From IMG/VR virus record IMGVR_UViG_3300033153_011579: DNA of 64,000 nt; one strand, written 5' to 3'. The notes under the pieces were generated by a model that worked only from the letters and a program-made list of their open reading frames with translations, did not search any database and had not been told where the DNA came from. The stretch comes from a virus (Duplodnaviria > Heunggongvirae > Uroviricota > Caudoviricetes). Within the stretch, counting starts at the first letter, position 1. Every line of letters begins with the position of its first letter. A program made the translations under genes and the position numbers. This document shows positions 970 to 14,490 of the stretch, piece by piece.

Positions 970-1139
970 GCGACAACCACATCTACGCCCCGGGGCGCTG
1001 CGTGAGCTGTGCACAGCGACGTTGGGACATCGAAGCCAAGAAGGCGGAGTGCGCGCTGGACCGTCCGGAATTCGATGCCGGTGACGACGGGAAGCGACGC
1101 GAGTGCTGGGAGTCGGGCAACGAGGACGAGGACCGGTAA
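966..1139 (+). CDS. Hypothetical small protein (57 aa, CxxC)
   Basis: MSDNHIYAPGRCVSCAQRRW...; ATGA overlap with integrase stop; its TAA is inside T1 copy 1. Confidence 0.5.
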   Translation: MSDNHIYAPGRCVSCAQRRWDIEAKKAECALDRPEFDAGDDGKRRECWESGNEDEDR

Positions 1140-1169
1140 GAGAGTGATGAATTCTCTGACACGGAGGGG
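1137..1169 (+). repeat. T1 element copy 1 (TAA / stem-loop / TGACACG / SD)
   Basis: TAAGAGAGTGATGAATTCTCTGACACGGAGGGG; TAA = stop of upstream ORF; ATG 1173. Confidence 0.9.
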
Positions 1170-1172
1170 ACG

Positions 1173-1730
1173 ATGAAGGTCGATATTCCAGACAACGTGA
1201 TCGAAAATCTCGTCGACGAAAAGGTCAAACAGAAAATGCGGGAGGTCGGATTCGATCTCGTAAAGTCTCTGAAAGGCTGGTTAGACCAGATCGACACTGT
1301 TGGTGAACTGTCTGCCTGGTCTACGGTGACTTACTATTTCATAGATACTTATCATCGGTTTTTCGAATTGCGGTGGGGGGAGTTTGAGCTGGATGGGCAA
1401 GCCGTCCCTCCTAAAACAGAAGTTGTCTTCGATGCTGGTTTAGACTCTGACGGTTTCGGCTTGGTCAAGCTATCGTCCGGTGAGTATGGATATTCTCAAT
1501 GTGAAAAACCGTGGATTCGTGTGAAGCCGACCGTTCACCGTTACGGCCCCGAAGAGAACCAGGTCGTCCTTGAGTATGACGAGCCGTGGTGTGATGGCAA
1601 GTGCCGGGTTCGCGTCGAAGACGGTGAACATATAACCCTCTGGCAGGAAGAAGAATTTAAAAAAGACTCAGAGGAGTTTGATGAGCTACGACAGGCCTGG
1701 GAGTCGATCATGAAACCGCCGGAAAAGTGA
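1173..1730 (+). CDS. Hypothetical protein (185 aa)
   Basis: ORF track; ATG 4 nt after T1 copy 1 SD; visibly lower GC than neighbours. Confidence 0.7.
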   Translation: MKVDIPDNVIENLVDEKVKQKMREVGFDLVKSLKGWLDQIDTVGELSAWSTVTYYFIDTYHRFFELRWGEFELDGQAVPPKTEVVFDAGLDSDGFGLVKLSSGEYGYSQCEKPWIRVKPTVHRYGPEENQVVLEYDEPWCDGKCRVRVEDGEHITLWQEEEFKKDSEEFDELRQAWESIMKPPEK

Positions 1731-1731
1731 C

Positions 1732-1766
1732 TGTAAGGGAATGCGCAATTCTCTGACACGGAGGAG
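1732..1766 (+). repeat. T1 element copy 2
   Basis: TGTAAGGGAATGCGCAATTCTCTGACACGGAGGAG; left arm AGGGAAT pairs with ATTCTCT only via G-U. Confidence 0.9.
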
Positions 1767-1769
1767 CGG

Positions 1770-2021
1770 ATGAGCTACGGAAGAACACCATACTACATCC
1801 TCAACATGATCAATTCGGACTGTGTTCACTTCTGGTGTGAGCTCGGAGAGGTTCTCGTGCCACAGCGCGCTGTCGACCAGTTTTGTGTCGTCCGCGTGCT
1901 GAACCCAGACGAGCTCATCCATGCTTTTCGCTGGTTCGAGGAACAGCGCCCGGACTGGGAGGACCTCCGCGAAGACTTTGTGGCAGCGCTCCGCAAAATA
2001 GCAGACGAGATAGAACGGTAA
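1770..2021 (+). CDS. Hypothetical protein (83 aa)
   Basis: ATG 4 nt after T1 copy 2 SD; TAA is inside T1 copy 3. Confidence 0.65.
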   Translation: MSYGRTPYYILNMINSDCVHFWCELGEVLVPQRAVDQFCVVRVLNPDELIHAFRWFEEQRPDWEDLREDFVAALRKIADEIER

Positions 2022-2050
2022 GGGAATGCGGAATTCTCTGACACGGAGGA
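2019..2050 (+). repeat. T1 element copy 3
   Basis: TAAGGGAATGCGGAATTCTCTGACACGGAGGA; TAA = stop of upstream ORF. Confidence 0.9.
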
Positions 2051-2054
2051 GACG

Positions 2055-2465
2055 ATGAACAAAGCAACCAAGGCACTCAAGACTCTCCGGGCTGTAAGTC
2101 GACCAGGTAGCCCGACGCGCCAGGCTGCCGTTCTAGGGTTGGCTGAAATTGAGAGGCTACGAAAGCAACGTGACGAAGCTCGACGTGACCACGCTGTTCC
2201 GGGGATGTACGCTCTCGGCTACGCGCTGTTCTACTTCCAGTTCAGTAACCGCGATCACGACTATGGAGATCAGGTCGGCCGCGTCCACGCTCTCTGTGAG
2301 CGCTGGGTGGATCTCCGGGCACGAGAGCACGCCGCGATGCTACAGGAGTTCGACCTCAACGAAGATCCAGACGACAAGAAGTGGGAAGCCTTCCTGCAGG
2401 GGTGGGCTCCAGAGTGGGACAAGCTCCTGGAAGACATCGACGACGAGTGCGAGAACCTGTGCTGA
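2055..2465 (+). CDS. Hypothetical protein (136 aa)
   Basis: ATG 5 nt after T1 copy 3; stop TGA 5 nt before T1 copy 4. Confidence 0.65.
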   Translation: MNKATKALKTLRAVSRPGSPTRQAAVLGLAEIERLRKQRDEARRDHAVPGMYALGYALFYFQFSNRDHDYGDQVGRVHALCERWVDLRAREHAAMLQEFDLNEDPDDKKWEAFLQGWAPEWDKLLEDIDDECENLC

Positions 2466-2470
2466 GGGGC

Positions 2471-2505
2471 TGTAAGAGAATGCGGATTTTTCTGACACGG
2501 AGGAG
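2471..2505 (+). repeat. T1 element copy 4
   Basis: TGTAAGAGAATGCGGATTTTTCTGACACGGAGGAG. Confidence 0.85.
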
Positions 2506-2508
2506 TTG

Positions 2509-2712
2509 ATGGAGTATTTCTCGACACTGTTTAACATCATGCTCGGCGCGCTCGGTATCTTGGGACTCCTTGTTGGAGGGGGGATCTTTATTGTGGGCAT
2601 CGCGGCGACTATAGTGGAGGAAAAGGCTAGATTCTTGTTGCTGTGCCCGATTGGATTTTTGGCCGGGTGCAGCGGATTAGCCTGGTTCGTCACGGTGGTG
2701 AAGTATCTGTAA
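2509..2712 (+). CDS. Small membrane protein (67 aa, 2 hydrophobic helices)
   Basis: MEYFSTLFNIMLGALGILGLLVGGGIFIVGIAATIV...; ATG 4 nt after SD; TAA inside T1 copy 5. Confidence 0.6.
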   Translation: MEYFSTLFNIMLGALGILGLLVGGGIFIVGIAATIVEEKARFLLLCPIGFLAGCSGLAWFVTVVKYL

Positions 2713-2739
2713 GAGAATGTAGAGTTCTCTGACGAGGAG
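2708..2739 (+). repeat. T1 element copy 5 (TGAC-GAGGAG variant)
   Basis: TGTAAGAGAATGTAGAGTTCTCTGACGAGGAG; TAA = stop of upstream ORF. Confidence 0.85.
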
Positions 2740-2745
2740 CGGATT

Positions 2746-3075
2746 ATGACTGTCGAAGAAACAAGCGAAGAGCTGGCGCTGGAGGGACGATCGGTGGTCA
2801 TCGAGGTGACCCGCTTTCCCAAGGGCACATCCCGCGGCCGGGTGACATCGCTCGCCGTCGGCATCGACCCCGAGGTGAAGGAGGGGGACGAGGCCGTCGA
2901 TGTGTCTCCCGCCCTCGTGGTCGACGCGCTGATCTACGCCCTGAAGCTGAACTACGACGCTGAGAGCCAGCACGGATCGGACGAGACCGCCGAGGAGTAC
3001 GTCGAGGACGTGGCGCGGATCCTGCTGTCGCAGATCGAGAACGATGAGCCGAGCTCGCTCAGGAGGGTCCACTGA
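2746..3075 (+). CDS. Hypothetical protein, paralogue A of 5953..6282 (109 aa)
   Basis: MTVEETSEELALEGRSVVIEVTRFPKGTSRGRVTSLAVGI...; near-identical second copy 3.2 kb downstream. Confidence 0.75.
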   Translation: MTVEETSEELALEGRSVVIEVTRFPKGTSRGRVTSLAVGIDPEVKEGDEAVDVSPALVVDALIYALKLNYDAESQHGSDETAEEYVEDVARILLSQIENDEPSSLRRVH

Positions 3076-3085
3076 CACGGAGAAG
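3073..3085 (+). repeat. Stemless T1 3' half (TGACACGGAGAAG)
   Basis: TGA of TGACACG is the stop of 2746..3075; GGAGAAG serves ATG 3089. Confidence 0.75.
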
Positions 3086-3088
3086 AAA

Positions 3089-3280
3089 ATGACTATGCTG
3101 ACCGCCTATATCGTTCTGGGGGTGCTCGTGCTGGGAGCTATCGGTACCGGTATCTGGGCCAAGCTCACTGGTGATCCGGTCCCTGTGATTCTTTGCGCCC
3201 TACTGATCGCGGCGGCGGCGGCGCTGTTGAACATCCCGTCGAGCAGGTTCGCCAAGTCCAAGAAGGAGCTCGACCGATGA
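3089..3280 (+). CDS. Small membrane protein (63 aa)
   Basis: MTMLTAYIVLGVLVLGAIGTGIWAKL...LCALLIAAAAALLNI; two hydrophobic helices. Confidence 0.6.
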   Translation: MTMLTAYIVLGVLVLGAIGTGIWAKLTGDPVPVILCALLIAAAAALLNIPSSRFAKSKKELDR

Positions 3281-3519
3281 AAAGATTCAAACTTCACCAG
3301 CGAGTCCGCGTGACCGAGGGCGAGCTCGTCGGCCGATTCGGAGCCGTCTGGCGGTGTCGTCGAGCCGATGATGCGGCATGGATCGCGATGGACGAAGACA
3401 TCCCGGAGTCGCTGCGACAGTTTCCAGCAAACGACGCACACGGCCGCGGTAACCACGTGATCCTCTGGCCGGACCAATGCGAGAGGATCACCAAAGCGCC
3501 GAAGCTGAAGGCTGTGTGA
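3277..3519 (+). CDS. Hypothetical protein (80 aa)
   Basis: MKRFKLHQRVRVTEGELVGRFGAVW...; ATGA overlap with upstream stop; GC-rich third positions. Confidence 0.55.
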   Translation: MKRFKLHQRVRVTEGELVGRFGAVWRCRRADDAAWIAMDEDIPESLRQFPANDAHGRGNHVILWPDQCERITKAPKLKAV

Positions 3520-3851: not shown

Positions 3852-3853
3852 TC

Positions 3854-4339: not shown

Positions 4340-4369
4340 GAGAATGCCGGATTCTATGACACGGAGGAG
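4337..4369 (+). repeat. T1 element copy 6
   Basis: TAAGAGAATGCCGGATTCTATGACACGGAGGAG; 28 nt upstream (CGGTGACGGCGAGGACGAG) also shared with copy 17. Confidence 0.9.
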
Positions 4370-4374
4370 TGAAG

Positions 4375-4581: not shown

Positions 4582-4583
4582 GC

Positions 4584-4617
4584 TGTAAGAGAGTGATAGA
4601 TTCTCTGACACGGAGGA
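4584..4617 (+). repeat. T1 element copy 7
   Basis: TGTAAGAGAGTGATAGATTCTCTGACACGGAGGA. Confidence 0.9.
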
Positions 4618-4651: not shown

Positions 4652-4744
4652 ATGGACATCGATGGCAACCTCGACCGCGAAGTTGCGATCTTCCACCTGA
4701 CCGGTAAGGGGCGGGAGGCCGCGAAAAGCGATGAGGAAAAATGA
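4652..4744 (+). CDS. Tiny ORF, 5' end unresolved (30 aa from first ATG)
   Basis: High-GC3 frame KWIDGKYKESGMDIDGNLDREVAIFHLTGKGREAAKSDEEK* is open from 4589 but has no ATG/GTG/TTG before 4652. Confidence 0.3.
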   Translation: MDIDGNLDREVAIFHLTGKGREAAKSDEEK

Positions 4745-5339: not shown

Positions 5340-5342
5340 TGA

Positions 5343-5357
5343 GGAATGACACGTTCC
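5343..5357 (+). repeat. T2 hairpin copy a (GGAA-TGACACG-TTCC)
   Basis: GGAATGACACGTTCC immediately after stop of 5037..5339 and 20 nt before T1 copy 8. Confidence 0.8.
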
Positions 5358-5376
5358 TTACGAAGAAAACGAATTT

Positions 5377-5412
5377 TGTAAGAGAACCCCAAGATTCTCT
5401 GACATGGAGGAG
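5377..5412 (+). repeat. T1 element copy 8 (TGACATG variant)
   Basis: TGTAAGAGAACCCCAAGATTCTCTGACATGGAGGAG. Confidence 0.85.
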
Positions 5413-5418: not shown

Positions 5419-5682
5419 ATGTTCGACGATTGGTCAACTTGGCAACTAGTACTGACCGGTGTCTTCTACTTTTTTCTGTGTATGCTGATCGGATTTCTTG
5501 CCACAGCCGTCCCAGCCTGGGTGCAGCTGTGGAGGGTCAAACAAGAATGTCGGAGTCGGGTAGCTCAAGCCAATCGAAGGTTTGATCTGTCTACTCGTGA
5601 TTTGTGTAAGAGAATGTCGGTTTCTCTGACACGGAGAAGAGAATGGGAACGGAAAAAGATCAAGACAACGTCAGGCACCTGA
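5419..5682 (+). CDS. Membrane protein (87 aa) reading through T1 copy 9
   Basis: MFDDWSTWQLVLTGVFYFFLCMLIGFLATAVPAWV...; TAA of copy 9 is out of frame so the ORF overlaps the next gene by 40 nt. Confidence 0.5.
   Translation: MFDDWSTWQLVLTGVFYFFLCMLIGFLATAVPAWVQLWRVKQECRSRVAQANRRFDLSTRDLCKRMSVSLTRRREWERKKIKTTSGT
5605..5639 (+). repeat. T1 element copy 9
   Basis: TGTAAGAGAATGTCGGTTTCTCTGACACGGAGAAG. Confidence 0.9.
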
Positions 5683-5945
5683 ACCAGGGTGAGCAGGCTT
5701 TTGCCGATCTGATCTCTGTCCTCTCCGACGGGAAGGTCTCCCGCGTCGTGGTGGCCTACTACTGCGAGGAGGACGAGGACGAGGAAGCTGGCTGGTCCTA
5801 CGTCCGGGCCTCGAGACCACCGAGCCCCATCGGTAGCGCCATCGTAGAGGATGTTGGAGCCGCGTCCTTGTTATCCTTGTACGTCAGAGACTGGTACGAC
5901 TCCGCCATGGCGACCGAGACAACCCACGAGGTGCCGCGGAAGTGA
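5643..5945 (+). CDS. Hypothetical acidic protein (100 aa)
   Basis: ATG 4 nt after T1 copy 9; MGTEKDQDNVRHLNQGEQAF...CEEDEDEEAGW. Confidence 0.55.
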   Translation: MGTEKDQDNVRHLNQGEQAFADLISVLSDGKVSRVVVAYYCEEDEDEEAGWSYVRASRPPSPIGSAIVEDVGAASLLSLYVRDWYDSAMATETTHEVPRK

Positions 5946-5952
5946 GGACAAG

Positions 5953-6282
5953 ATGGCTGTTGAGGAAACAACTGAAGAGCTGGCCCTGGAGGGACGCTCG
6001 GTGGTCATCGAGGTGACCCGCTTTCCCAAGGGCACATCCCGCGGCCGGGTGACATCGCTAGCCGTCGGCATCGAGCCCGACGTGAAGAATGGGGGCGACC
6101 CCGTCGATGTGTCTCCGGCCCTCGTGGTCGACGCGCTGATCTACGCCCTGAAGCTGAACTACGACGCCGAGAGCCAGCACGGGTCAAACGAGACGGCCGA
6201 GGACTACGTCGAGGACGTGGCGCGGATCCTGCTGTCGCAGATCGAGAACGACGAGCCGAGCTCGCTCATGCGGGTTCACTGA
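5953..6282 (+). CDS. Hypothetical protein, paralogue B of 2746..3075 (109 aa)
   Basis: MAVEETTEELALEGRSVVIEVTRFPKGTSRGRVTSLAVGI...; stop TGA lies in TGACACG. Confidence 0.75.
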   Translation: MAVEETTEELALEGRSVVIEVTRFPKGTSRGRVTSLAVGIEPDVKNGGDPVDVSPALVVDALIYALKLNYDAESQHGSNETAEDYVEDVARILLSQIENDEPSSLMRVH

Positions 6283-6292
6283 CACGGAGGGG
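6280..6292 (+). repeat. Stemless T1 3' half (TGACACGGAGGGG)
   Basis: TGA of TGACACG is the stop of 5953..6282; SD serves ATG 6296. Confidence 0.75.
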
Positions 6293-6295
6293 AAG

Positions 6296-6493
6296 ATGAG
6301 CCTGTTTTTTACGACGACAATTCGCGAGGATGTTGAGATCGAGGTCGATGTGGAGTGCTCGAGGTGTGGAGCCGCTCTCACGGCAACATCCAGAAGCGAA
6401 CACATCGGCTCCCACGATGAAAACCACCGGCTGGTGATCCACCCGTGCACCACCTGCTACCCGGTTGGCGCGACGGATACCGAGAGCTCGTAA
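6296..6493 (+). CDS. Zinc-ribbon protein (65 aa)
   Basis: ...VECSRCGAAL...HPCTTCYP; TAA inside T1 copy 10. Confidence 0.55.
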   Translation: MSLFFTTTIREDVEIEVDVECSRCGAALTATSRSEHIGSHDENHRLVIHPCTTCYPVGATDTESS

Positions 6494-6523
6494 GAGAATG
6501 TGCGTTTCTCTGACACGGAGGAG
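6491..6523 (+). repeat. T1 element copy 10
   Basis: TAAGAGAATGTGCGTTTCTCTGACACGGAGGAG; TAA = stop of upstream ORF. Confidence 0.9.
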
Positions 6524-6529
6524 TGGCAA

Positions 6530-6802
6530 ATGAATAAAGAGAAGAAACTCAAGAAGCTCGGGATCCCAGACAAGACCGTAACCTGGGAAGAGTTCAAGGA
6601 ACTCCCGCAAACGCGTGGTGAAGGGATCTCCTTTAAAGCGCAAGGTGTTGGGGACTGGAAGGGTGAGTGGTTCTGGTTTGAGTCGCTAGGGGTGGTTGAG
6701 GTCGACCGCGCCTTGGCCGATGGCGAGGTTATCAGAGGAATGAAGGTCAACGCTGGGAACTGGCACAGGCTTGTTGTCGTTCCTCATAATTTTCCTCGCT
6801 GA
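6530..6802 (+). CDS. Hypothetical protein (90 aa)
   Basis: MNKEKKLKKLGIPDKTVTWEEF...; ATG 6 nt after SD (track ORF start 6500 lies in the hairpin loop). Confidence 0.6.
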   Translation: MNKEKKLKKLGIPDKTVTWEEFKELPQTRGEGISFKAQGVGDWKGEWFWFESLGVVEVDRALADGEVIRGMKVNAGNWHRLVVVPHNFPR

Positions 6803-6807
6803 CGACC

Positions 6808-6843
6808 TGTAAGAGAATGGAGCGTTCTATGACAGAGAAAGAG
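6808..6843 (+). repeat. T1 element copy 11 (degenerate 3' half)
   Basis: TGTAAGAGAATGGAGCGTTCTATGACAGAGAAAGAG. Confidence 0.7.
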
Positions 6844-7152
6844 ATCAAGCCGAAGATGGTGGATGGCGAGGCGGTGTGTTCTAAAAACTGTCCGCGTTAT
6901 GGGATTGAGCCATGCATGGGGCTTGTTGATTTATCCTCATGCGCCCCCTACTACCGCGCCCGTGTCGCCGAGCTCGAGGCACAGATTTCAAGAATCAGCG
7001 ATACGATCTACCGGGGTGCTCCGCTGTCGTGGGCAAAGGCTGAATTTCACGAGGTCGTGAGCGCCTGGGAGCTGGATCTCTGTATCGCTCTGAACTTATG
7101 CGGCTTCCGCGACGCCCTTGAGCATATTAAGGCGAAGAAAGATTCAGAGTAA
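6829..7152 (+). CDS. Hypothetical protein (about 107 aa; start uncertain 6817/6829/6856)
   Basis: ...CSKNCPRYG...APYYRARVAELEAQISR; TAA inside T1 copy 12. Confidence 0.5.
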   Translation: MTEKEIKPKMVDGEAVCSKNCPRYGIEPCMGLVDLSSCAPYYRARVAELEAQISRISDTIYRGAPLSWAKAEFHEVVSAWELDLCIALNLCGFRDALEHIKAKKDSE

Positions 7153-7180
7153 GAGAATTTTACGTTCTCTGACACGGAGA
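7150..7180 (+). repeat. T1 element copy 12
   Basis: TAAGAGAATTTTACGTTCTCTGACACGGAGA; TAA = stop of upstream ORF. Confidence 0.9.
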
Positions 7181-7185
7181 AAAAG

Positions 7186-7677: not shown

Positions 7678-7712
7678 TGTAAGAGAATTTTGCATTCTCT
7701 GACACGGAGAAG
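7678..7712 (+). repeat. T1 element copy 13
   Basis: TGTAAGAGAATTTTGCATTCTCTGACACGGAGAAG; preceded by shared TGAGCT. Confidence 0.9.
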
Positions 7713-8054: not shown

Positions 8055-8376
8055 GCCAGAAGAAGACTTTGGTCTCGTGGTCGAACTTCACGGCCCGCGC
8101 GTGATTCATCGGTGCCGAGACTGTGATCACAGGTTCGGGTCTCCGCCCAGGCATTGGCAATGTAAGGCGCACCCGCGTCACCTGGAAAACCCAGAATATG
8201 CTCTTCATTTGGTCGGAAGAGAGTTGGATGAAAGCGAGCTCACAGACGGATATGGGTTTTGTGACCTCATCCGTGTGGCGACACAGCCGACGTGTCCTGA
8301 GTTCGAGCCGCGTAGACCGGCGAGTGCTGGATTTGTGTCTTGGTGGAGAAGGCTGTTGGCGAAGTTCGGTCTGTAA
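8047..8376 (+). CDS. Cys-rich protein (109 aa)
   Basis: HRCRDCDHRFG...; 8-nt overlap with upstream gene, GGAG upstream; TAA in T1 copy 14. Confidence 0.55.
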   Translation: MNKPEEDFGLVVELHGPRVIHRCRDCDHRFGSPPRHWQCKAHPRHLENPEYALHLVGRELDESELTDGYGFCDLIRVATQPTCPEFEPRRPASAGFVSWWRRLLAKFGL

Positions 8377-8400
8377 GAGAATTTATGATTCTCTGACACG
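8372..8400 (+). repeat. T1 element copy 14 (no canonical GGAGG after TGACACG)
   Basis: TGTAAGAGAATTTATGATTCTCTGACACG then AGATGGGTAGATG. Confidence 0.85.
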
Positions 8401-8410
8401 AGATGGGTAG

Positions 8411-8650
8411 ATGAAGAAGCGAGCAAAACGAGTCGAAAGATTCCATGTGAGGTGTCCCTTTTGTGGCGATCTCGTGGACATCATGACGTCGCTCTCTTGG
8501 TGCTCTGGGTGTTTTGTCGAGTGGTACCGTACACGAGCTTGCAATTACATTTTTGATACCGAGAGGAAGACCGAGAGGTTCGTGTGGGCCAAGGCGGTGC
8601 AGAAGTCCGGAGGCATGCGGATCGCCTCAGCCAACGAGGACGATGAGTAA
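8411..8650 (+). CDS. Zinc-ribbon protein (79 aa)
   Basis: VRCPFCGDLVDIMTSLSWCSGCFVEWY; TAA in T1 copy 15. Confidence 0.6.
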   Translation: MKKRAKRVERFHVRCPFCGDLVDIMTSLSWCSGCFVEWYRTRACNYIFDTERKTERFVWAKAVQKSGGMRIASANEDDE

Positions 8651-8679
8651 GAGAATTCAGGATTCTCTGACACGGAGGA
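8648..8679 (+). repeat. T1 element copy 15
   Basis: TAAGAGAATTCAGGATTCTCTGACACGGAGGA; perfect 7-bp stem, 5-nt loop. Confidence 0.95.
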
Positions 8680-8683
8680 TGAG

Positions 8684-9052
8684 ATGTGGAACAGAGTAAT
8701 ATTCGCGGGCTGGATGGTAGTCGCGTTGCTGATCGGGGTCCTATTCGGCGCAGGCCTCTACCAAACCTGGCCGGCTAATCCCGACGTGATCGAGGACACC
8801 GAACCCTCAAGCGGTCGGCCCCTAGAGATCGAGATCTGCTCAGACGCGGCTGACCACTGCAACGATTCGGAGGACTGCGTAGAGGACGTATTCTCGCGGT
8901 GTCTTTACCACCTCGGGACGCCAACAATGTCCGACTGTCACGAAGAGTGCGCAGGGATCATGAAGGAGCTAAGCGACAAGAACGATGCGTGCTGGGATAG
9001 CTTCATGAACTGCCAAGACGTACTCGACGAGGTGTGGCGAGAAGCGCTGTAA
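8684..9052 (+). CDS. N-terminally anchored Cys-rich protein (122 aa), paralogue of 32459..32836
   Basis: TM VIFAGWMVVALLIGVLFGAGLY; TMSDCHEECAGIMKELSDKNDACWDSFMNC aligns with TIETCREECAEIVRDLSRANDDLWERWLAC. Confidence 0.65.
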   Translation: MWNRVIFAGWMVVALLIGVLFGAGLYQTWPANPDVIEDTEPSSGRPLEIEICSDAADHCNDSEDCVEDVFSRCLYHLGTPTMSDCHEECAGIMKELSDKNDACWDSFMNCQDVLDEVWREAL

Positions 9053-9086
9053 GAGAATTGAGAATTCTCTGACACGGAAAAGAGGA
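9048..9086 (+). repeat. T1 element copy 16
   Basis: TGTAAGAGAATTGAGAATTCTCTGACACGGAAAAGAGGA. Confidence 0.9.
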
Positions 9087-9091: not shown

Positions 9092-9349
9092 GTGACTGAC
9101 GACATCATCCAGATTCGAACCGCGCCAGGATGCCGCAAGGAAAAGCCGATGCGGTATCTGGTGTTCCGCATCGAGTGCTACTACCCAGCGGGTGGGTGGG
9201 ACGACCTCGAAGCGACGACCAACGACAAGGAAACCGCAATCGAACTGGCCAAGAAAATTGAGGCTGAATTCAGCAGCGGCGAGGTGATTGACCTCGATAC
9301 TGGGACTCGCCTTTACCCGCCGTGGCGCGGTGACGACGAGGACGAGTAA
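9092..9349 (+). CDS. Hypothetical protein (85 aa, GTG start)
   Basis: GTG 5 nt after AAGAGGA; ends ...PWRGDDEDE*; TAA in T1 copy 17. Confidence 0.55.
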   Translation: MTDDIIQIRTAPGCRKEKPMRYLVFRIECYYPAGGWDDLEATTNDKETAIELAKKIEAEFSSGEVIDLDTGTRLYPPWRGDDEDE

Positions 9350-9380
9350 GAGAATTGGCGATTCTCTGACACGGAGAGGA
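9347..9380 (+). repeat. T1 element copy 17
   Basis: TAAGAGAATTGGCGATTCTCTGACACGGAGAGGA; upstream CGGTGACGACGAGGACGAG matches copy 6 flank. Confidence 0.95.
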
Positions 9381-9382: not shown

Positions 9383-9634
9383 ATGACCAGGCTCGAACAG
9401 TACCAAAAACTCCACGAGATCTTCCTCGTGAACAGGTTTTCGGACGTGTTGACCGAGGCTGAAGAAGACGACCTGCTCTACGCCCTGGACGCCGTTTGGT
9501 GGCAGATGACGAGTGCGGAGCACGCCGAAGCGGAGAAGGACACCTGGATGTGGAATCGGGTGCTGCGGGGATGGTTCGCGCACATCGATCCCGCTGGCGG
9601 AACGAACAACCCAGTGATGAAGTGGAGCTTGTAA
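9383..9634 (+). CDS. Hypothetical protein (83 aa)
   Basis: ORF track; TAA in T1 copy 18. Confidence 0.6.
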   Translation: MTRLEQYQKLHEIFLVNRFSDVLTEAEEDDLLYALDAVWWQMTSAEHAEAEKDTWMWNRVLRGWFAHIDPAGGTNNPVMKWSL

Positions 9635-9666
9635 GAGAACTGACAATTCCCTTACACGAGGAGGAG
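9630..9666 (+). repeat. T1 element copy 18 (divergent right arm, TTACACG)
   Basis: TGTAAGAGAACTGACAATTCCCTTACACGAGGAGGAG. Confidence 0.8.
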
Positions 9667-9982: not shown

Positions 9983-10465
9983 ATGCACGGGCTAGGAAGA
10001 AGAGGAAACCGCCGGAAGAAACGCCTGAAGAAACATCGAGGCCGTACTCCTGCTAGAGTTTCGGCATCCAGCAAGGTCTACAACACTACCTCCAGGACCG
10101 TCGTCAAGACTGCTGCGCCCAGCACCGTCGTCACGTTCGACGACGTAGCTGATCTGGCCGAGGCGACCCTCGACGAGGAGAACGTGACCGCGCTGTTCAT
10201 GCGGTACGACAATAACATCAGGCCAACGCTCTTCTACACTGCCTACGCGGAAACTCCGTCTGGGCGCGTCTTCCTCCAGGCAGTCCATGTACTGTCGAAA
10301 GATGAGATCTACGAGAACCCAAAACACCCGCTGCCCTGTTACAGGGACGGCAAGGACATGAGGTGCCCCTATCCGCAGGAGCACATCATCGACAGGGCCG
10401 TTGAGTACTGGGAGTCCCGAGGGATTGACGTCTACGAGGGCACGGTGGAGATGAAGATTTTGTAA
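9983..10465 (+). CDS. Hypothetical protein with basic N-terminus (160 aa)
   Basis: MHGLGRRGNRRKKRLKKHRGRTPARV...; TAA in T1 copy 20. Confidence 0.6.
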   Translation: MHGLGRRGNRRKKRLKKHRGRTPARVSASSKVYNTTSRTVVKTAAPSTVVTFDDVADLAEATLDEENVTALFMRYDNNIRPTLFYTAYAETPSGRVFLQAVHVLSKDEIYENPKHPLPCYRDGKDMRCPYPQEHIIDRAVEYWESRGIDVYEGTVEMKIL

Positions 10466-10494
10466 GAGAACCTTCTATTCCCTGACATGGAGGA
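10461..10494 (+). repeat. T1 element copy 20
   Basis: TGTAAGAGAACCTTCTATTCCCTGACATGGAGGA. Confidence 0.8.
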
Positions 10495-10499: not shown

Positions 10500-10733
10500 A
10501 TGAAAACGGGAGAACGCGAACTGTTCAAGGTAACCGGACGACCTGGTCGCCGTATCTGGCGCAAACAAGCCGGAGCGCGAGGGTACCGACCCATCTGGAC
10601 CTCCGACTACGTTGAGGAGGTTGACGGGAAGTTCTTCTGCACGATTCGGAGTGAGTCCGAGAACGACCTGCCGATGGAGCAGCACGATAACCTTCAAGAC
10701 GCGCTCGAGTGGTTGATGAGGGATCGGACGTAA
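10500..10733 (+). CDS. Hypothetical protein (77 aa)
   Basis: ORF track; TAA in T1 copy 21. Confidence 0.6.
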   Translation: MKTGERELFKVTGRPGRRIWRKQAGARGYRPIWTSDYVEEVDGKFFCTIRSESENDLPMEQHDNLQDALEWLMRDRT

Positions 10734-10762
10734 GAGAATCAACGATTCTCTGACATGGAGGA
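10731..10762 (+). repeat. T1 element copy 21
   Basis: TAAGAGAATCAACGATTCTCTGACATGGAGGA. Confidence 0.9.
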
Positions 10763-10766
10763 CAGG

Positions 10767-10961: not shown

Positions 10962-10962
10962 C

Positions 10963-10996
10963 TGTAAGAGAACAGACGATTCTCTGACACGAGGAG
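10963..10996 (+). repeat. T1 element copy 22
   Basis: TGTAAGAGAACAGACGATTCTCTGACACGAGGAG. Confidence 0.9.
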
Positions 10997-11002
10997 AGAA
11001 GG

Positions 11003-11254
11003 ATGAATTTCAGTAACGAGCAAATGACAGAGTGGCTGTCGGAGGTTCCGGAAGCTACCAGCGTACGCTGCGTGGCTATCCCTCCGTACATCAGTAAAGA
11101 GATGAAGGAGCGGCCAGTGATTCCGTGGGATCTGCTTACCCGAGAAGTCAACAACAAGATAGGTGATGGTGACCGCGTACTCGGGATTCGTGCTGCGGGG
11201 GCCAACTCCTACGGCAATTACTGGATCATCATTTGGGTTGGCAACAAAGAGTGA
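11003..11254 (+). CDS. Hypothetical protein (83 aa)
   Basis: ORF track; ATG after T1 copy 22 SD. Confidence 0.6.
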   Translation: MNFSNEQMTEWLSEVPEATSVRCVAIPPYISKEMKERPVIPWDLLTREVNNKIGDGDRVLGIRAAGANSYGNYWIIIWVGNKE

Positions 11255-11257
11255 GCT

Positions 11258-11290
11258 TGTAAGAGAAACTAATATTCTCTGACGGAGGAG
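11258..11290 (+). repeat. T1 element copy 23
   Basis: TGTAAGAGAAACTAATATTCTCTGACGGAGGAG; preceded by shared TGAGCT. Confidence 0.85.
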
Positions 11291-11293
11291 AGC

Positions 11294-11527
11294 ATGGACA
11301 ACGATACCAAAAGACTGTGTGGCAACTGCTTCTGGTTTGATCAAGAGCTCTGTCGACGACTGCCACCGCGCATGATTGACCAGGTAGATCTTTATGAAAA
11401 AGATAGTGAGTTCAACACCTGGAATGCCAGTTACGCAGACGACTACACCTCTTGGCCAGTTGTAGAAGAGAAAGCCTGGTGCGGAGAATGGCGATCGAAG
11501 GAAGACGGCTGGCCCGTCGGTAAGTAA
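11294..11527 (+). CDS. Cys-rich hypothetical protein (77 aa)
   Basis: CGNCFWFDQELCRRLPP...WCGEW; TAA in T1 copy 24. Confidence 0.6.
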   Translation: MDNDTKRLCGNCFWFDQELCRRLPPRMIDQVDLYEKDSEFNTWNASYADDYTSWPVVEEKAWCGEWRSKEDGWPVGK

Positions 11528-11556
11528 GAGAATCAAACATTCTCTGACACGAGGAG
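11525..11556 (+). repeat. T1 element copy 24
   Basis: TAAGAGAATCAAACATTCTCTGACACGAGGAG. Confidence 0.9.
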
Positions 11557-11559
11557 AAG

Positions 11560-11673
11560 ATGATGGAAATTCTAATTTTTTGGCTGTGCTTTTGTGGACT
11601 CGGAGCCGTTGGTATATTGGTAGCGTCCTTGGTGATCCTCAGTGAGGAACGTCAACGAAACGGTCGCCAGTAA
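11560..11673 (+). CDS. Small hydrophobic peptide (37 aa; below ORF-track cutoff)
   Basis: MMEILIFWLCFCGLGAVGILVASLVILSEERQRNGRQ*; exactly bounded by T1 copies 24 and 25. Confidence 0.4.
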   Translation: MMEILIFWLCFCGLGAVGILVASLVILSEERQRNGRQ

Positions 11674-11701
11674 GAGAATCAGCACGTTCCCTGAAAGGAA
11701 G
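11671..11701 (+). repeat. T1/T2 hybrid element (copy 25)
   Basis: TAAGAGAATCAGCACGTTCCCTGAAAGGAAG: T1 left half joined to the ACGTTCCCTGAAAGGA tail seen in T2 copy e. Confidence 0.8.
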
Positions 11702-11714
11702 ATTGGAGAACAAA

Positions 11715-11927
11715 ATGTCGAAGAACACGGTCACGCAGCACGTTTTGGTTGATTCCCATGTTGAGTGCTTCCCTGAGGAATTCCTCGAAGCACTTCTCGC
11801 AGTTTGTCCGGCTCCCTTGGCACCGGACAGTCTTAAACAACTCCGTGACATAGGGAGAGTCCAGTTGAGCCTCTGGCTTTCCCCGGAGGACTTGAAGCGC
11901 TGGACAGGTAAAGCGCCAGGGGAATGA
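11715..11927 (+). CDS. Hypothetical protein (70 aa)
   Basis: MSKNTVTQHVLVDSHVECFPEEF...; stop TGA lies in T2 copy b. Confidence 0.5.
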   Translation: MSKNTVTQHVLVDSHVECFPEEFLEALLAVCPAPLAPDSLKQLRDIGRVQLSLWLSPEDLKRWTGKAPGE

Positions 11928-11938
11928 CACTTTCCCTG
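11919..11938 (+). repeat. T2 hairpin copy b
   Basis: GGGGAATGACACTTTCCCTG; TGA = stop of upstream ORF. Confidence 0.8.
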
Positions 11939-11976
11939 TGCCTACACAACAACCGCCTAGTGGGGCAAGGAGTAGG

Positions 11977-12330
11977 ATGATGACAGAGCATACATTGACC
12001 GTTGGTGGAAGCGAGGTCGTGGTTTCGAGTAACCCTGTTTCAAGGGACCTTGTCGGCTCGGACCGCAGCTTCGGAGATGAACGCGCGCACCCATGTCCGA
12101 ACTGTAGCAAAAATAGTCTGCGCTACCATTTCCTCGACTACAGGCCTGCGCTGTCGTGGGCCTGCGTCGAGTGTGGCTATGCTGAGCACCCGCCGATTGA
12201 AAAGTTGGTTGCCGATGGGTACTCCCCGCAGAAGGTAGAGGAGGATTGGTCGACCTGCATTTACCCAAAGGAGTGGATGCTTTACTCCCCGCTTGAGCGG
12301 TTAGCGTCACCACAAACACGAAAGGATTAG
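11977..12330 (+). CDS. Zinc-ribbon protein (117 aa; track start 11938 is GTG)
   Basis: HPCPNCSKNS...WACVECGYAEHP; AAGGAG 6 nt before ATGATG. Confidence 0.5.
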   Translation: MMTEHTLTVGGSEVVVSSNPVSRDLVGSDRSFGDERAHPCPNCSKNSLRYHFLDYRPALSWACVECGYAEHPPIEKLVADGYSPQKVEEDWSTCIYPKEWMLYSPLERLASPQTRKD

Positions 12331-12334
12331 AACG

Positions 12335-12685
12335 ATGGGTTTGTTTTCACCACCAGGCCAAGCTCCAGATCTCCGAGAGGCGAAAGATGTTAGAGTTATC
12401 GTCACCCTATGCAAGGACGAAGAACCAGGTGATGGATATGTCCGAACACAGATAACCGCTCTCGATGAACTCGAGGAGGGTGAAGAGGGTTTAAATATTA
12501 ACGGAGACAACGTCTTTGAGGCACTGGTTTACGCGCTGTACCACCACTTTGTAAACGAGCACGAGGTTGGGCATTCTTGTTGCCTTACTCATTTTATCGA
12601 AGAGATCACAGACCTACTGGAGCGTGTCAACGAGACTGACGGAAACGAAAAGGTCAGTCGGAGTTCTGAAGAACACACACATTAA
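12335..12685 (+). CDS. Hypothetical protein (116 aa), AT-richer
   Basis: ORF track; visibly lower GC than array average. Confidence 0.55.
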   Translation: MGLFSPPGQAPDLREAKDVRVIVTLCKDEEPGDGYVRTQITALDELEEGEEGLNINGDNVFEALVYALYHHFVNEHEVGHSCCLTHFIEEITDLLERVNETDGNEKVSRSSEEHTH

Positions 12686-12727
12686 TAAGGGTTATTGCAT
12701 CAGCTGCGGACCGTCGACCCTGTATGA

Positions 12728-12746
12728 GGAATGACACGTTCCCTGG
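12728..12746 (+). repeat. T2 hairpin copy c (in non-coding gap)
   Basis: GGAATGACACGTTCCCTGG. Confidence 0.8.
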
Positions 12747-12793
12747 TGGGAGAACGTCGAACTGGAGTGAGAGGAGTTTGAATGTTTAAAGCA

Positions 12794-12944
12794 CGTCGAG
12801 TTCTCCGAGCGCGCGGTGAGTGTGGACGGGGGCCTGCGTTGGGTTTTTGTGACGAATTCTCCTTAGCAGGCCTTCTACGTGGAGTGCTTCAACCATTCCA
12901 TCGACCTACTCGACCCACTCACCGCGCGCTCGGAGAACTCGACG
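12794..12944. repeat. 29-bp perfect inverted repeat flanking a 93-nt spacer
   Basis: 12794-12822 CGTCGAGTTCTCCGAGCGCGCGGTGAGTG is the exact reverse complement of 12916-12944; nested GGCCTGC/GCAGGCC pair in the spacer. Confidence 0.9.
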
Positions 12945-12971
12945 GCACGCAGTCGGGGGAAGGAGAAAAGA

Positions 12972-13181
12972 ATGCGAAAATATCGATTTCAGCACGATGA
13001 GGATGGTGACGTGCTGTGGGTCTACATCGCCGGTAACTCCGCGTACCCAGGGGAGCACCGCTTCGATCCACCAGAAGTTTTGGAGGCCTACATCGGTTAC
13101 CTTCGAGCATGTAAAGGTGATCAACTTGATTCTGATGTAGTTATCGCCTGGAAGGACAGTGCTTGGGGTCCGGATGTCTGA
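12972..13181 (+). CDS. Hypothetical protein (69 aa)
   Basis: MRKYRFQHDEDGDVLWVYIAG...; GGAAGGAGAAAAGA upstream; stop abuts T2 copy d. Confidence 0.5.
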   Translation: MRKYRFQHDEDGDVLWVYIAGNSAYPGEHRFDPPEVLEAYIGYLRACKGDQLDSDVVIAWKDSAWGPDV

Positions 13182-13196
13182 TGACACGTTCCCTGG
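13179..13196 (+). repeat. T2 copy d (left arm missing)
   Basis: TGATGACACGTTCCCTGG. Confidence 0.65.
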
Positions 13197-13232
13197 TACC
13201 CCTATGCCCAAACACTAGGCAGGAGGAATGAG

Positions 13233-13412
13233 ATGTCTGAAAAGAAAGCTGTGGTTCAACGTGTTGTCATCCACGAACTCTTGGATGCAGGTGTGGTGGC
13301 GATCGAAGGACGTGATCTTGTGTTCGAGTCCCCCTGGGACAAGGGCTCAGAGGCGATGATTGCTTTGATGAAGAAAGGCCTCGTCAAAGACGTGGTCCGG
13401 GACAGGGAATGA
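13233..13412 (+). CDS. Hypothetical protein (59 aa; below ORF-track cutoff)
   Basis: MSEKKAVVQRVVIHELLDAGVVAIEGRDLVFESPWDKGSEAMIALMKKGLVKDVVRDRE*; AGGAGGAATGAG upstream; TGA in T2 copy e. Confidence 0.45.
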   Translation: MSEKKAVVQRVVIHELLDAGVVAIEGRDLVFESPWDKGSEAMIALMKKGLVKDVVRDRE

Positions 13413-13423
13413 CACGTCCCCTG
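13405..13423 (+). repeat. T2 hairpin copy e
   Basis: GGGAATGACACGTCCCCTG followed by AAAGGAG SD and ATG 13438. Confidence 0.8.
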
Positions 13424-13437
13424 AAAGGAGAAGCCCG

Positions 13438-13713
13438 ATGGGTCAAACAACATCCGACAATCCAGGTGGAGTGAAGTCGCTCTTCGAAGATAACAACTCA
13501 CAAAAAGCTACTGCCTCCACGCTCGCCGGATACCTCGTCGAAGATGGTGCTTGGATGGTATTGCCAGATGGGGACCGCGAGATCACTATTGTGCGGCACA
13601 GAGACTATGGCACGATCATGTATCTCATTGATGGTCCAGGCGAGGATATAAGAAGCGGCGTAGTAAAAACGGTGCGAGAACTCGCTGACGCCATCGCCGT
13701 TGGTGGGGAATGA
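13438..13713 (+). CDS. Hypothetical protein (91 aa)
   Basis: ORF track; stop TGA in T2 copy f. Confidence 0.55.
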   Translation: MGQTTSDNPGGVKSLFEDNNSQKATASTLAGYLVEDGAWMVLPDGDREITIVRHRDYGTIMYLIDGPGEDIRSGVVKTVRELADAIAVGGE

Positions 13714-13726
13714 CACGTTCCCTAGG
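13705..13726 (+). repeat. T2 hairpin copy f
   Basis: GGGGAATGACACGTTCCCTAGG, 10 nt before T1 copy 26. Confidence 0.85.
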
Positions 13727-13736
13727 AACTTGAGCT

Positions 13737-13770
13737 TGTAAGAGAATCTCGCATTCTCTGACACGGAGGA
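13737..13770 (+). repeat. T1 element copy 26
   Basis: TGTAAGAGAATCTCGCATTCTCTGACACGGAGGA; preceded by shared TGAGCT. Confidence 0.95.
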
Positions 13771-13774
13771 AAAA

Positions 13775-13954
13775 ATGGACGAACACATGAGATATTTAGG
13801 CTGCCTGAAACTACTTGAGGATTGCTCACCTTACGTACCGGAAGAGATTCGTGAGGGTATCGAGATGGCTCACGACGATGCTGTAGAGGCCAGCAACGGG
13901 ACCTTGCGGGCTCGCAGTGTGCTCGATCGACGAGAGATCGAGGTGGTGACGTAA
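13775..13954 (+). CDS. Hypothetical protein (59 aa; below ORF-track cutoff)
   Basis: MDEHMRYLGCLKLLEDCSPYVPEEIREGIEMAHDDAVEASNGTLRARSVLDRREIEVVT*; bounded by T1 copies 26 and 27. Confidence 0.5.
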   Translation: MDEHMRYLGCLKLLEDCSPYVPEEIREGIEMAHDDAVEASNGTLRARSVLDRREIEVVT

Positions 13955-13984
13955 GAGAATCCGCACGTTCTCTTACACGGAGGA
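13952..13984 (+). repeat. T1 element copy 27
   Basis: TAAGAGAATCCGCACGTTCTCTTACACGGAGGA. Confidence 0.85.
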
Positions 13985-13985
13985 A

Positions 13986-14189
13986 ATGATGGGTAAAGAT
14001 GTGAGGACCAAGACATTCGCTATGATGTTTCGGGAGCGCTGCGTGATCATGCGGGATGCTTTCGACCGCCGTGACGTAGAGGGCTTTGCTACTGCTCTCA
14101 AGGACGTTGAGCGCCTGATGCGAGAGCACGCCGAGGGGTGCGGCTGCTCACAATGCCGAGAGACGCTGAAGATCATGAATGAGGTGTAA
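13986..14189 (+). CDS. Hypothetical protein (67 aa)
   Basis: ORF track; ...HAEGCGCSQCRETLK; TAA in T1 copy 28. Confidence 0.55.
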   Translation: MMGKDVRTKTFAMMFRERCVIMRDAFDRRDVEGFATALKDVERLMREHAEGCGCSQCRETLKIMNEV

Positions 14190-14219
14190 GAGAATACACA
14201 CGTCCTTTAACACGGAGGA
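14185..14219 (+). repeat. T1 element copy 28 (degenerate right arm)
   Basis: TGTAAGAGAATACACACGTCCTTTAACACGGAGGA. Confidence 0.75.
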
Positions 14220-14223
14220 AACG

Positions 14224-14460
14224 ATGAGTACTGTTCTGGATAATGACCAAAAATTGATGGTAATTCTGGCGGTTGTGGTGGCACTCTTCCTGTTAATTTT
14301 GGCTGGTGGGAAGCTTATTGGTGATGTTTTGTCACCCCCAACACCCCAAGAGGACTGTATGAACCAGGCCCAGCAGCTGGACAGCGAGGAGTCTGAGAAA
14401 GAAGCCTACTACAAGTGTCTTGAGTCTTTAGGGCTGGAAGATCCTAAAAAGGCTTTGTAA
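14224..14460 (+). CDS. N-terminally anchored small protein (78 aa)
   Basis: MSTVLDNDQKLMVILAVVVALFLLILAGGKLIG...; TAA in T1 copy 29. Confidence 0.55.
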   Translation: MSTVLDNDQKLMVILAVVVALFLLILAGGKLIGDVLSPPTPQEDCMNQAQQLDSEESEKEAYYKCLESLGLEDPKKAL

Positions 14461-14490
14461 GAGAATCTTCCGTTCTCTGACACGGAGAAG
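14456..14490 (+). repeat. T1 element copy 29 (last)
   Basis: TGTAAGAGAATCTTCCGTTCTCTGACACGGAGAAG. Confidence 0.9.

Follow-up and report, generated by a model that had tools for sequence, protein, structure and literature searches.

A 33-nucleotide element joining a stop codon, a promoter-type palindrome and a ribosome-binding site at 29 gene junctions of an uncultivated tailed phage

The 64,000-nucleotide stretch of IMG/VR virus record IMGVR_UViG_3300033153_011579 (Duplodnaviria; Heunggongvirae; Uroviricota; Caudoviricetes), hereafter the window, contains a 13-kb array of small genes punctuated by a recurring element of ~33 nt. This element is new in that it unites a stop codon, a palindrome of the type present at the early promoter and a ribosome-binding site (RBS) in one 33-nt unit, repeated at 29 junctions in a lineage far from cultured phages. 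The tentative reading offered here is that of a portable module for gene junctions, with an operator-type palindrome at its centre that a regulator would bind on DNA and with flanks that give the stop codon and RBS.

A two-arm search of the window identified 29 co-oriented full copies, all on the + strand between positions 1136 and 14489, with the consensus GTAAGAGAAT-N5/6-ATTCTCTGACACGGAGG. The 3' half alone (TTCTCTGACACGGAGG, up to three mismatches) gave 25 matches, all on the + strand between 1152 and 14488, compared with 1.02 +/- 0.93 in shuffled sequence. A covariance model built from 36 copies found no further + strand copies in the 64 kb, its - strand matches being merely the palindromic core of known copies; both searches agree with a first-pass annotation of this DNA, which had reported a 29-copy repeat found neither elsewhere nor in the opposite orientation. 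Copies recur every 460 bp on average (29 in 13.4 kb). Their arms of 7-10 nt are near-invariant and enclose a variable inner loop of 5-6 nt, with GTAAGAG at the left end of the element and TTCTCTGAC as the right arm. Outside the 7-nt arms, 35-36 of 36 array copies keep a G and a T ahead of AAGAGAAT as well as GAC followed by ACG beyond the right arm, and the palindrome in array copies reaches 10 nt per arm. On the left, the TAA of the element is the stop codon of the upstream open reading frame (ORF) in 19 of 29 copies (P = 4e-4 against the expectation of 1/3, one frame in three), and in most remaining copies the upstream stop lies 2-9 nt ahead of the element. On the right, a Shine-Dalgarno (SD) sequence (GGAGG or GGAGA) sits 5-8 nt ahead of the next start codon, with TGACACGGAGG at this distance from 29 start codons. 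The gene map and copy alignment uphold the anatomy first described (stop codon, stem-loop, TGACACG and an SD sequence serving the downstream ORF, with invariant arms and a free loop), and the same count of 19 stop codons was obtained. The array additionally holds two copies of the right half only (at 3068 and 6275) and six type-2 sites (one partial) of the form GGGAA-TGACACG-TTCCCT, which have the promoter-type arms GGGAA/TTCCC; TGACACG forms the 3' tail in the type-1 copies and lies inside the spacer in type-2 copies. The individual sites are as follows.

1136..1168, + strand: copy 1; TAA is the upstream ORF stop
1733..1765, + strand: copy 2; left arm AGGGAAT
2018..2050, + strand: copy 3; left arm AGGGAAT; TAA is the upstream ORF stop
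2472..2504, + strand: copy 4
2709..2741, + strand: copy 5; tail GACGAGGAG; TAA is the upstream ORF stop
3068..3088, + strand: right half only (TCCACTGACACGGAGA); TGA of TGACACG is a stop codon
4336..4368, + strand: copy 6; TAA is the stop of an upstream ORF with an acidic C-terminal tail
4585..4617, + strand: copy 7
5341..5359, + strand: type-2 palindrome GAGGAA-TGACACG-TTCCTT, promoter-type arms
5378..5411, + strand: copy 8; inner loop of 6 nt
5606..5638, + strand: copy 9
6275..6295, + strand: right half only (TTCACTGACACGGAGG), duplicate of that at 3068; TGA of TGACACG is a stop codon
6490..6522, + strand: copy 10; TAA is the upstream ORF stop
6809..6841, + strand: copy 11, degenerate; next ATG within the right arm
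7149..7181, + strand: copy 12; TAA is the upstream ORF stop
7679..7711, + strand: copy 13; TGAGCTT directly 5'
8373..8405, + strand: copy 14; TAA is the upstream ORF stop
8647..8679, + strand: copy 15; TAA is the upstream ORF stop
9049..9081, + strand: copy 16; TAA is the upstream ORF stop
9346..9378, + strand: copy 17; TAA is the stop of an upstream ORF with an acidic C-terminal tail
9631..9663, + strand: copy 18, TTCCCTTAC variant; same loop as the copy at 11055 of relative L061
9942..9975, + strand: copy 19, degenerate; TTAC variant
10462..10494, + strand: copy 20
10730..10762, + strand: copy 21
10964..10996, + strand: copy 22
11259..11291, + strand: copy 23; TGAGCTT directly 5'
11524..11556, + strand: copy 24
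11670..11703, + strand: copy 25, degenerate; right arm TTCCCT, without TGACACG
11917..11938, + strand: type-2 palindrome CAGGGGAA-TGACACT-TTCCCTG; TGA is a stop codon
12726..12744, + strand: type-2 palindrome GAGGAA-TGACACG-TTCCCT
13182..13194, + strand: partial type-2 site TGACACG-TTCCCT, without left arm
13403..13423, + strand: type-2 palindrome CAGGGAA-TGACACG-TCCCCTG; TGA is a stop codon
13705..13723, + strand: type-2 palindrome GGGGAA-TGACACG-TTCCCT; TGA is a stop codon
13738..13770, + strand: copy 26
13951..13984, + strand: copy 27, TTAC variant; perfect 10-bp stem
14186..14219, + strand: copy 28, degenerate
14457..14489, + strand: copy 29; RBS for the conserved 223-aa backbone gene

The array region comprises ~47 co-oriented ORFs, with one to four in each unit between element copies. 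Where a junction has no element, the genes overlap or are very closely spaced, the sole exception being a 33-nt gap at 4707/4741, and a palindrome is present at every non-overlapping junction but one. Most of the ORFs are ORFans, and two fall in PHROG families without a known function. Sigma70-like promoters and terminator-like sites in the array are at background level only, and it therefore appears to be a single long operon, in which control sites at internal positions are plausible; it is headed by a conserved sigma70-type early promoter and includes the recombinase, the array and the backbone genes described below. The element itself is not an intrinsic terminator, as had been recognized before, given that no U-tract follows the hairpin and terminator-like sites are at background. 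No Rfam family matched the element, and a sub-threshold fluoride-riboswitch match at 11920-11984 (20.1 bits against a gathering score of 34; E = 0.11), which overlaps a type-2 palindrome, is probably due to chance. Composition is heterogeneous, in line with the mosaicism first judged by eye: GC content is 54.6% in the array and 60.7% in the remainder, and GC at third codon positions (GC3) ranges over 0.41-0.85 in the array and 0.77-0.87 in backbone genes.

The palindrome of the element recurs at the early promoter. The early regulatory region precedes the operon's first gene and is situated 1.1-1.3 kb to the left of position 1 of the window, at 4107-4297 of L058, a contig of the same phage that reaches 5.4 kb further left. 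Counterparts occur in relatives (L061 7130-7355, L064 1-200, L203 4640-4850 and L210 6400-6560), and the region was aligned across six lineages (L058, representing the window phage, L061, L063, L064, L066 and L203). Its parts are, in order, clustered TTTCCCGTG repeats (three to five TTTCCCGTG/CACGGGAA copies, which may be operators or iterons), a TGTACACAATGTATACA-type palindrome, a second palindrome termed P2, TTGACA, a -10-like hexamer 16-18 nt after it, and a conserved leader with AAGGAG before ATG. P2 has the form AGGGAAT-N4..6-ATTCCCT and lies 1 nt upstream of TTGACA (3 nt in the window phage). Its arms are the 7-nt arms of the element; the element's flanks are not common to P2. Three of the six lineages with P2 are without the element and one has a single diverged copy. 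In the window phage P2 reads AGGGAAT-CCCCT-ATTCTCT, with the right arm TTCTCT as in its own array; the right arm of P2 in L061 is TTCCCT, as in three of the six L061 array copies. None of the 57 unrelated viral control loci has this pattern, and in the more distant relative L210 the rest of the promoter is kept without P2. AGGGAAT, the left arm of copies 2 and 3, appears on this comparison to be the ancestral, promoter-type arm. In L061, P2 is probably not transcribed because the neighbouring upstream gene is divergent; this gene (5869-7059, - strand) encodes an AcrVA2-like protein. In the window phage, a gene for a 224-aa sigma-70-family factor with regions 2 and 4 (L058 3433-4107) lies directly upstream of the early promoter region.

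Conservation of the arms appears to reflect their sequence, and not merely their ability to pair. The main hairpin (GU.AGAGAAU/AUUCUCU.AC) is predicted in nearly all copies, with a mean of -6.3 kcal/mol, and a G-to-T variant (TTAC) closes the A.G mismatch in its stem. However, there is no covariation above shuffles: 92.6% of cells are paired, compared with 93.2% in shuffles, and a single double change was seen. As stem columns are almost invariant, neither pairing nor covariation exceeds shuffles. G-T and A-C mismatches are equally frequent in the stem (15 each), and the earlier suggestion that G-U pairing in AGGGAAT-armed copies hints at action in RNA thus loses its basis. Selection would on this evidence act on arm sequence beyond complementarity, which points to a sequence-specific factor. 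An alternative hairpin that buries the SD sequence is possible in consensus copies (UUCUCUG-ACA-CGGAGGA), but a translational switch in which the right arm pairs with either the left arm or the SD sequence was rejected: the alternative averages -1.9 kcal/mol, the main hairpin is stabler in 34 of 35 copies, and the SD-sequestering form is broken in TTCCCTTAC variants and shows no covariation. Type-2 sites were likewise discarded as covariation support for a second hairpin, their arms being simply promoter-type.

The array interrupts a conserved gene module. Four genes are common to all relatives, namely those for the recombinase (58-62% identity to the relatives), a 223-aa cysteine-rich protein, a 126-aa protein and a 319-aa recombinase-like protein, and these are arranged in the window, with one further gene, as follows.

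82..969, + strand: divergent tyrosine recombinase, 295 aa, left backbone gene (Pfam Phage_integrase E = 3.6e-4; phrog_1 integrase E = 2.4e-11)
966..1139, + strand: four-cysteine protein of 57 aa, acidic at its tail, ahead of the first element copy
14493..15164, + strand: conserved 223-aa cysteine-rich backbone gene, directly 3' of the recombinase in array-less relatives
15148..15528, + strand: conserved 126-aa backbone gene
15528..16487, + strand: 319-aa distant paralogue of the recombinase, right backbone gene

The Pfam match of the 82-969 protein is below the gathering score, and its best NCBIfam models are XerA (26 bits) and XerC (21 bits), against cut-offs of 220 and 335. The 15528-16487 protein matches no family model; it is a distant paralogue of the first (22% identity, E = 9e-7). 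Its gene had initially been described as a second recombinase-like gene. Lineages differ in array size, taken here as the stretch that separates the recombinase gene from the 223-aa gene.

Window phage: 13.5 kb; 29 element copies
L061: 2.7 kb; six copies
L066: 2.4 kb; no element
L063: 0.66 kb; no element
L210: ~0.3 kb (325-nt gap); no element
L064: ~0; one diverged copy elsewhere
L203, L209 and L211: ~0; no element

The array is therefore a lineage-specific expansion, in which a constant pair of backbone genes encloses anything from 0 to 13.5 kb. L063 and L066 have insertions at the junction of the recombinase and 223-aa genes without the element. The element is confined to three or four related lineages, its carriers being the window phage, L061, L206 (one copy on a 683-bp contig) and L064 (one diverged copy). 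Searches for more carriers gave single chance matches only in an IMG/VR DNA-pattern scan, nothing in an IMG/VR protein search and, among JGI/ENA metagenome contigs, L118 only, which has the same sequence as L061; GTDB genomes gave chance matches only, with no prophage or host found.

Some features of the module stand apart from these comparisons. The genes for the recombinase, the 223-aa cysteine-rich protein and the recombinase-like paralogue form a conserved syntenic triad, which is present in L203, L209, L210 and L211 and persists even in distant relatives, and the 223-aa family forms 71 clusters at 50% identity in a public protein collection, none of them annotated. Homologues of the 57-aa four-cysteine protein immediately precede the first element copy in L061 and L206 too. 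This protein was considered as a trans-acting factor and set aside: the link is co-location only, in three lineages, and the diverged copy in L064 adjoins a different gene. Just upstream of the four-cysteine gene and the first element copy in these two relatives is a gene for a ribosomal protein S12-like protein (PF00164; L061 9849-10232 and L206 48-431), and L061 has another gene (3219-3512) with a long 6/12/18-nt periodic repeat.

The joints of the array are mosaic. Loops of neighbouring copies resemble each other (mean edit distance 3.04, compared with 4.22 +/- 0.19 when copy order is shuffled; 0 of 5000 shuffles as low). The window copy at 9631 and the L061 copy at 11055 have a common loop, CTGACAA, and are 88% identical over 59 nt, and the ORFs on either side of this copy are unrelated between the two phages. 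Several unrelated ORFs end in a common 15-18 nt before the element, encoding an acidic ...DEDE tail or containing TGAGCTT; these shared 5' extensions (GAGGACGAG before TAA and TGAGCTT before GTAAG) had been noted at the outset and are real. A 347-nt internal duplication (2746-3092 and 5953-6299; 91.6% nucleotide identity) has its limits precisely at successive start codons. The duplicated gene at 2746/5953 encodes a 109-aa protein, and L063 has an orthologue of it upstream of the recombinase. The phage was recovered from three JGI samples as four contigs (L058, L059, L060 and L205), which are 99.9-100% identical to and collinear with the window and show no strain-level polymorphism in ORF presence or absence. 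Evidence on the boundaries of insertions and deletions comes from the shared copy with unrelated flanking ORFs and from varying array size, the relatives being too divergent (58% recombinase identity) for breakpoint mapping.

The sequence-level conservation of the arms and the existence of P2 are most simply accounted for if a regulator of the early promoter uses the palindrome as its site on DNA. Conserved arms with randomised loops and no covariation are what recognition by a protein would predict. We infer that a sequence-specific regulator, probably dimeric, binds the core AGrGAAT-N5/6-ATTCyCT on DNA, both at P2 and at almost all junctions between non-overlapping accessory genes in the array, and affects transcription. 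Internal sites would let it block or modulate RNA polymerase within the 15-kb operon, in the manner of the stoperators of cluster A mycobacteriophages. The flanks (TAA on the left; TGACACG and GGAGG at fixed spacing on the right) would supply a stop codon and a strong RBS, such that any ORF between two copies would be terminated and translated within a promoterless polycistronic mRNA. The same 33 nt, recurring every ~460 bp, could double as joints for homologous recombination, which would explain both the expansion of the array and its mosaic content.

Several observations weigh against a regulator bound on DNA. No helix-turn-helix protein is recognizable among the conserved neighbours or early genes. 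Binding to the arms alone leaves unexplained the conservation of GT, GAC and ACG, which are absent from P2; these positions lengthen the stem and maintain a single-stranded linker of constant length to the SD sequence, which fits a role in RNA better. The spacer of P2 varies over 4-6 bp, which is awkward for a rigid dimer, and no DNA-binding geometry fits the position of TGACACG in the tail of type-1 and the spacer of type-2 copies. Also unexplained are the fixed phase to the SD sequence and the placing of the stop codon inside the stem. Finally, the other operons of the phage have no element copy, in contrast to the distribution of stoperators.

It is possible, if doubtful, and a close rival to the DNA-site reading, that the element acts at the RNA level instead, as an intercistronic element similar to the SAS (sequences associated with starts) of cluster K mycobacteriophages and to ESAS, their extended form; the two readings are not mutually exclusive, and the first-pass annotation was right to leave the mechanism open. 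The hairpin, single-stranded ACACG and SD sequence would be bound by an RNA-binding protein or endoribonuclease, or would act passively, with control of initiation, coupling, processing or mRNA stability for each cistron as the outcome. Such a role fits the location of all copies on the transcribed strand of one operon, their rigid spacing to SD sequence and start codon, the extension of the palindrome to 10 nt per arm in the array with closure of the A.G mismatch by the TTAC variant, the prediction of the hairpin in nearly all copies, and the single-stranded state of TGACACG both as tail (type 1) and as loop (type 2). ESAS and SAS of cluster K mycobacteriophages have the same architecture of inverted repeats, variable spacer and SD motif. 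The stem encloses the stop codon in 19 of 29 copies, and in most others the stop lies at most 9 nt upstream, for which reason a terminating ribosome would melt the hairpin. However, an RNA-level role is at odds with the lack of covariation and of a G-U over A-C bias, with conservation of the arm sequence beyond complementarity and with the lower stability and lack of conservation of the SD-sequestering hairpin; it does not predict the presence of the arms upstream of a -35 box in array-less relatives, and Rfam offers no match. The regulator-bound junction is also to be weighed against a per-gene promoter read by host RNA polymerase or with the phage sigma factor encoded upstream (L058 3433-4107), which is highly improbable. 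The cTGACA directly after the right arm resembles a -35 box, and palindrome and hexamer are laid out as palindrome and TTGACA are at the early promoter. However, the mean best score for a -10-like hexamer 16-19 nt downstream (2.29) equals background and only one of 35 copies reaches four of six positions; lacking a -10 box, the element is not a complete promoter. Moreover, the SD sequence and start codon fill the space needed for a -10 box and transcription start, and sigma70-like sites in the array are at background.

The remaining explanations centre on recombination. It is unlikely that the element is only a passive or selfish recombination joint, comparable to the promoter-early stem-loops (PeSLs) of T4-type phages in consequence only, with no regulatory role beyond its stop codon and RBS; it would persist and spread as homologous recombination or gene conversion between copies carries ORFs into and out of the array. 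The varying array between constant backbone genes, the likeness of neighbouring loops, the copy between unrelated ORFs in the window and L061, the common 5' extensions, the start-to-start duplication, the heterogeneous ORF composition and the PeSL precedent all agree with it. However, the arms, GT, GAC and ACG appear to be under purifying selection while the 5-nt loops are randomised, and sequence must therefore matter beyond homology; the promoter copy is left unexplained, and the four near-identical contigs are collinear and without presence/absence polymorphism. Decidedly unlikely is an integron-like system in which inverted arms of 9-10 bp and a spacer of 5-8 bp form core sites for the two flanking paralogous tyrosine recombinases, a layout that had been called formally integron-like. 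In favour of it, two paralogous recombinase-like genes flank the array exactly, the spacers of neighbouring copies are related and the ORFs are promoterless. The 9-7-9 layout resembles simple tyrosine-recombinase core sites such as dif, loxP and FRT. The idea of cassette shuffling gains support from varying array length, the shared copy with unrelated ORFs and the start-to-start duplication. The integron-like framing itself fails: the 82-969 gene is co-oriented with the array and not IntI-like, with only the marginal XerA and XerC scores given above, and the second paralogue has no model match; both genes and the intervening 223-aa gene are conserved and adjacent in element-less relatives, including distant ones; L063 and L066 have element-free insertions at this very junction; copies vary in both the sequence and the length of their spacers, with no GTTRRRY core; and no excision or insertion polymorphism was seen among the four contigs. 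A regulator-binding junction is more likely than an integron site because the palindrome also flanks the early promoter. Very unlikely, finally, is a self-expanding gene-capture device, in which the operator-derived palindrome would be targeted by the paralogous recombinase-like proteins or would direct duplicating insertion through its hairpin. Were this true, ORFs inserted at existing copies would receive a stop codon and RBS, the similarity of neighbouring loops would be a trace of target duplication, and the array would be an independent viral analogue of integrons.

The architecture of the element is precedented by SAS/ESAS, stoperators and PeSLs, the first and last of which had been aptly named as precedents, yet it is a member of none: its sequence is a different one, its site is a palindrome and not asymmetric, and it lacks a -10 box. 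In cluster K mycobacteriophages, SAS are SD-containing motifs 3-8 bp before the starts of a subset of non-structural genes, in one orientation and 11-19 copies per genome with the consensus GGGATAGGAGCCC, and ESAS are imperfect inverted repeats with 17-bp arms and a spacer of 4-13 bp (Pope et al. 2011, PMC3203893); known since 2011, their function was still unexplained in 2025. The present element similarly has a conserved SD motif before starts, a single orientation and upstream inverted repeats with a variable spacer. However, its sequence is unrelated to GGGATAGGAGCCC, the genome is not of cluster K and has a different host lineage, every copy has arms of 7-10 nt with the upstream stop in the left arm, the copies are much denser (29 in 13.4 kb) and the arms match an early-promoter palindrome. 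Stoperators of cluster A mycobacteriophages (L5 gp71 type) reuse the early-promoter operator in more than 20 copies in short intergenic spaces, oriented with transcription; they are asymmetric 13-mers bound by a monomeric repressor with helix-turn-helix and stoperator domains, and occur in both genome arms without fixed phase to an SD sequence (PMC9283540). The element resembles them in its 29 + strand copies, all at junctions, and in the reuse of its arms at the early promoter, but differs in being palindromic, limited to one operon (1136-14489) and its promoter, fused to a stop codon and RBS, and without a recognizable repressor.

PeSLs of T4-type phages combine an upstream stop, a stem-loop and the SD sequence and start of the next gene, and serve as exchange points between unrelated genes in hyperplastic ORFan regions (PMC2839356, PMC4122927). 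The likeness lies in a stem-loop with the upstream stop and the downstream SD sequence and start inside the motif. In contrast, PeSLs include a strong sigma70 promoter in full and a G/C-rich stem-loop of terminator grade, whereas the element has only a -35-like pentamer and a weak A/T-rich stem without a U-tract. Integrons similarly place a tyrosine recombinase by an array of promoterless co-oriented small ORFs, with imperfect palindromes that have conserved ends and a variable centre. However, attC sites are 57-141 bp long, with R''/L''/L'/R' boxes and a GTTRRRY core, none of which is present in the 33-nt element, a difference that the first-pass annotation had stated correctly. IntI is moreover divergently oriented beside attI and the cassette promoter Pc and recombines a folded single strand, unlike the co-oriented 82-969 protein, and the recombinase pair here is not tied to the sites, being kept in the array-less L064, L203, L209, L211 and L210. 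Repetitive extragenic palindromic (REP) elements are also short palindromes (~20-40 nt) at the 3' ends of genes in operons, and may affect mRNA stability and translation of the upstream gene. They differ in being chromosomal, present in both orientations, not fused to the next SD sequence and mobilised by REP-associated tyrosine transposases (RAYT), and no RAYT transposase gene was seen in the phage.

The element thus represents an unusually clean and dense instance of SAS/ESAS-type architecture in an unrelated, uncultivated lineage. The palindrome shared with the promoter provides a concrete lead and a testable idea, that one factor serves both promoter and junctions. The array shows how a phage can build a region of ~45 ORFan genes from standard junction modules, which bears on the way in which gene sets for early host takeover and anti-defence are assembled and silenced. 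Should the module function in the proposed way, synthetic biology would also gain a compact part comprising stop codon, control site and RBS.

The window phage is novel: in INPHARED, the first 16.5 kb had no nucleotide match, and neither the recombinase nor a 681-aa protein had a protein match. An 81-kb contig with a relative of the 223-aa protein was binned as Planctomycetota, though binning of phage contigs is a poor guide to host. Proteins of the phage include a PurZ-like adenylosuccinate synthetase, a DUF5131 protein and a GP88-like protein. The PurZ-like protein (phrog_1211, E = 1e-51) is 33-35% identical to proteins of a Rhizobium phage and cluster C mycobacteriophages, and its presence suggests that the phage may make 2-aminoadenine DNA; its gene and the nearby DUF5131 gene are at 26259-27368 and 23469-24611, both on the - strand, and the radical-SAM match of the DUF5131 protein is weak and sub-threshold. 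A 333-aa protein (17597-18598, - strand) has a response-regulator receiver domain (PF00072, E = 3.5e-15), and a smaller receiver-domain gene occupies the equivalent place in L203. Sigma70-like promoter candidates (TTGACA/TTGACT) occur in larger intergenic regions at 36190-36465, 41208-41348 and 62261-62380, with the region at 36.2 kb forming the divide between divergent - strand and + strand gene blocks.

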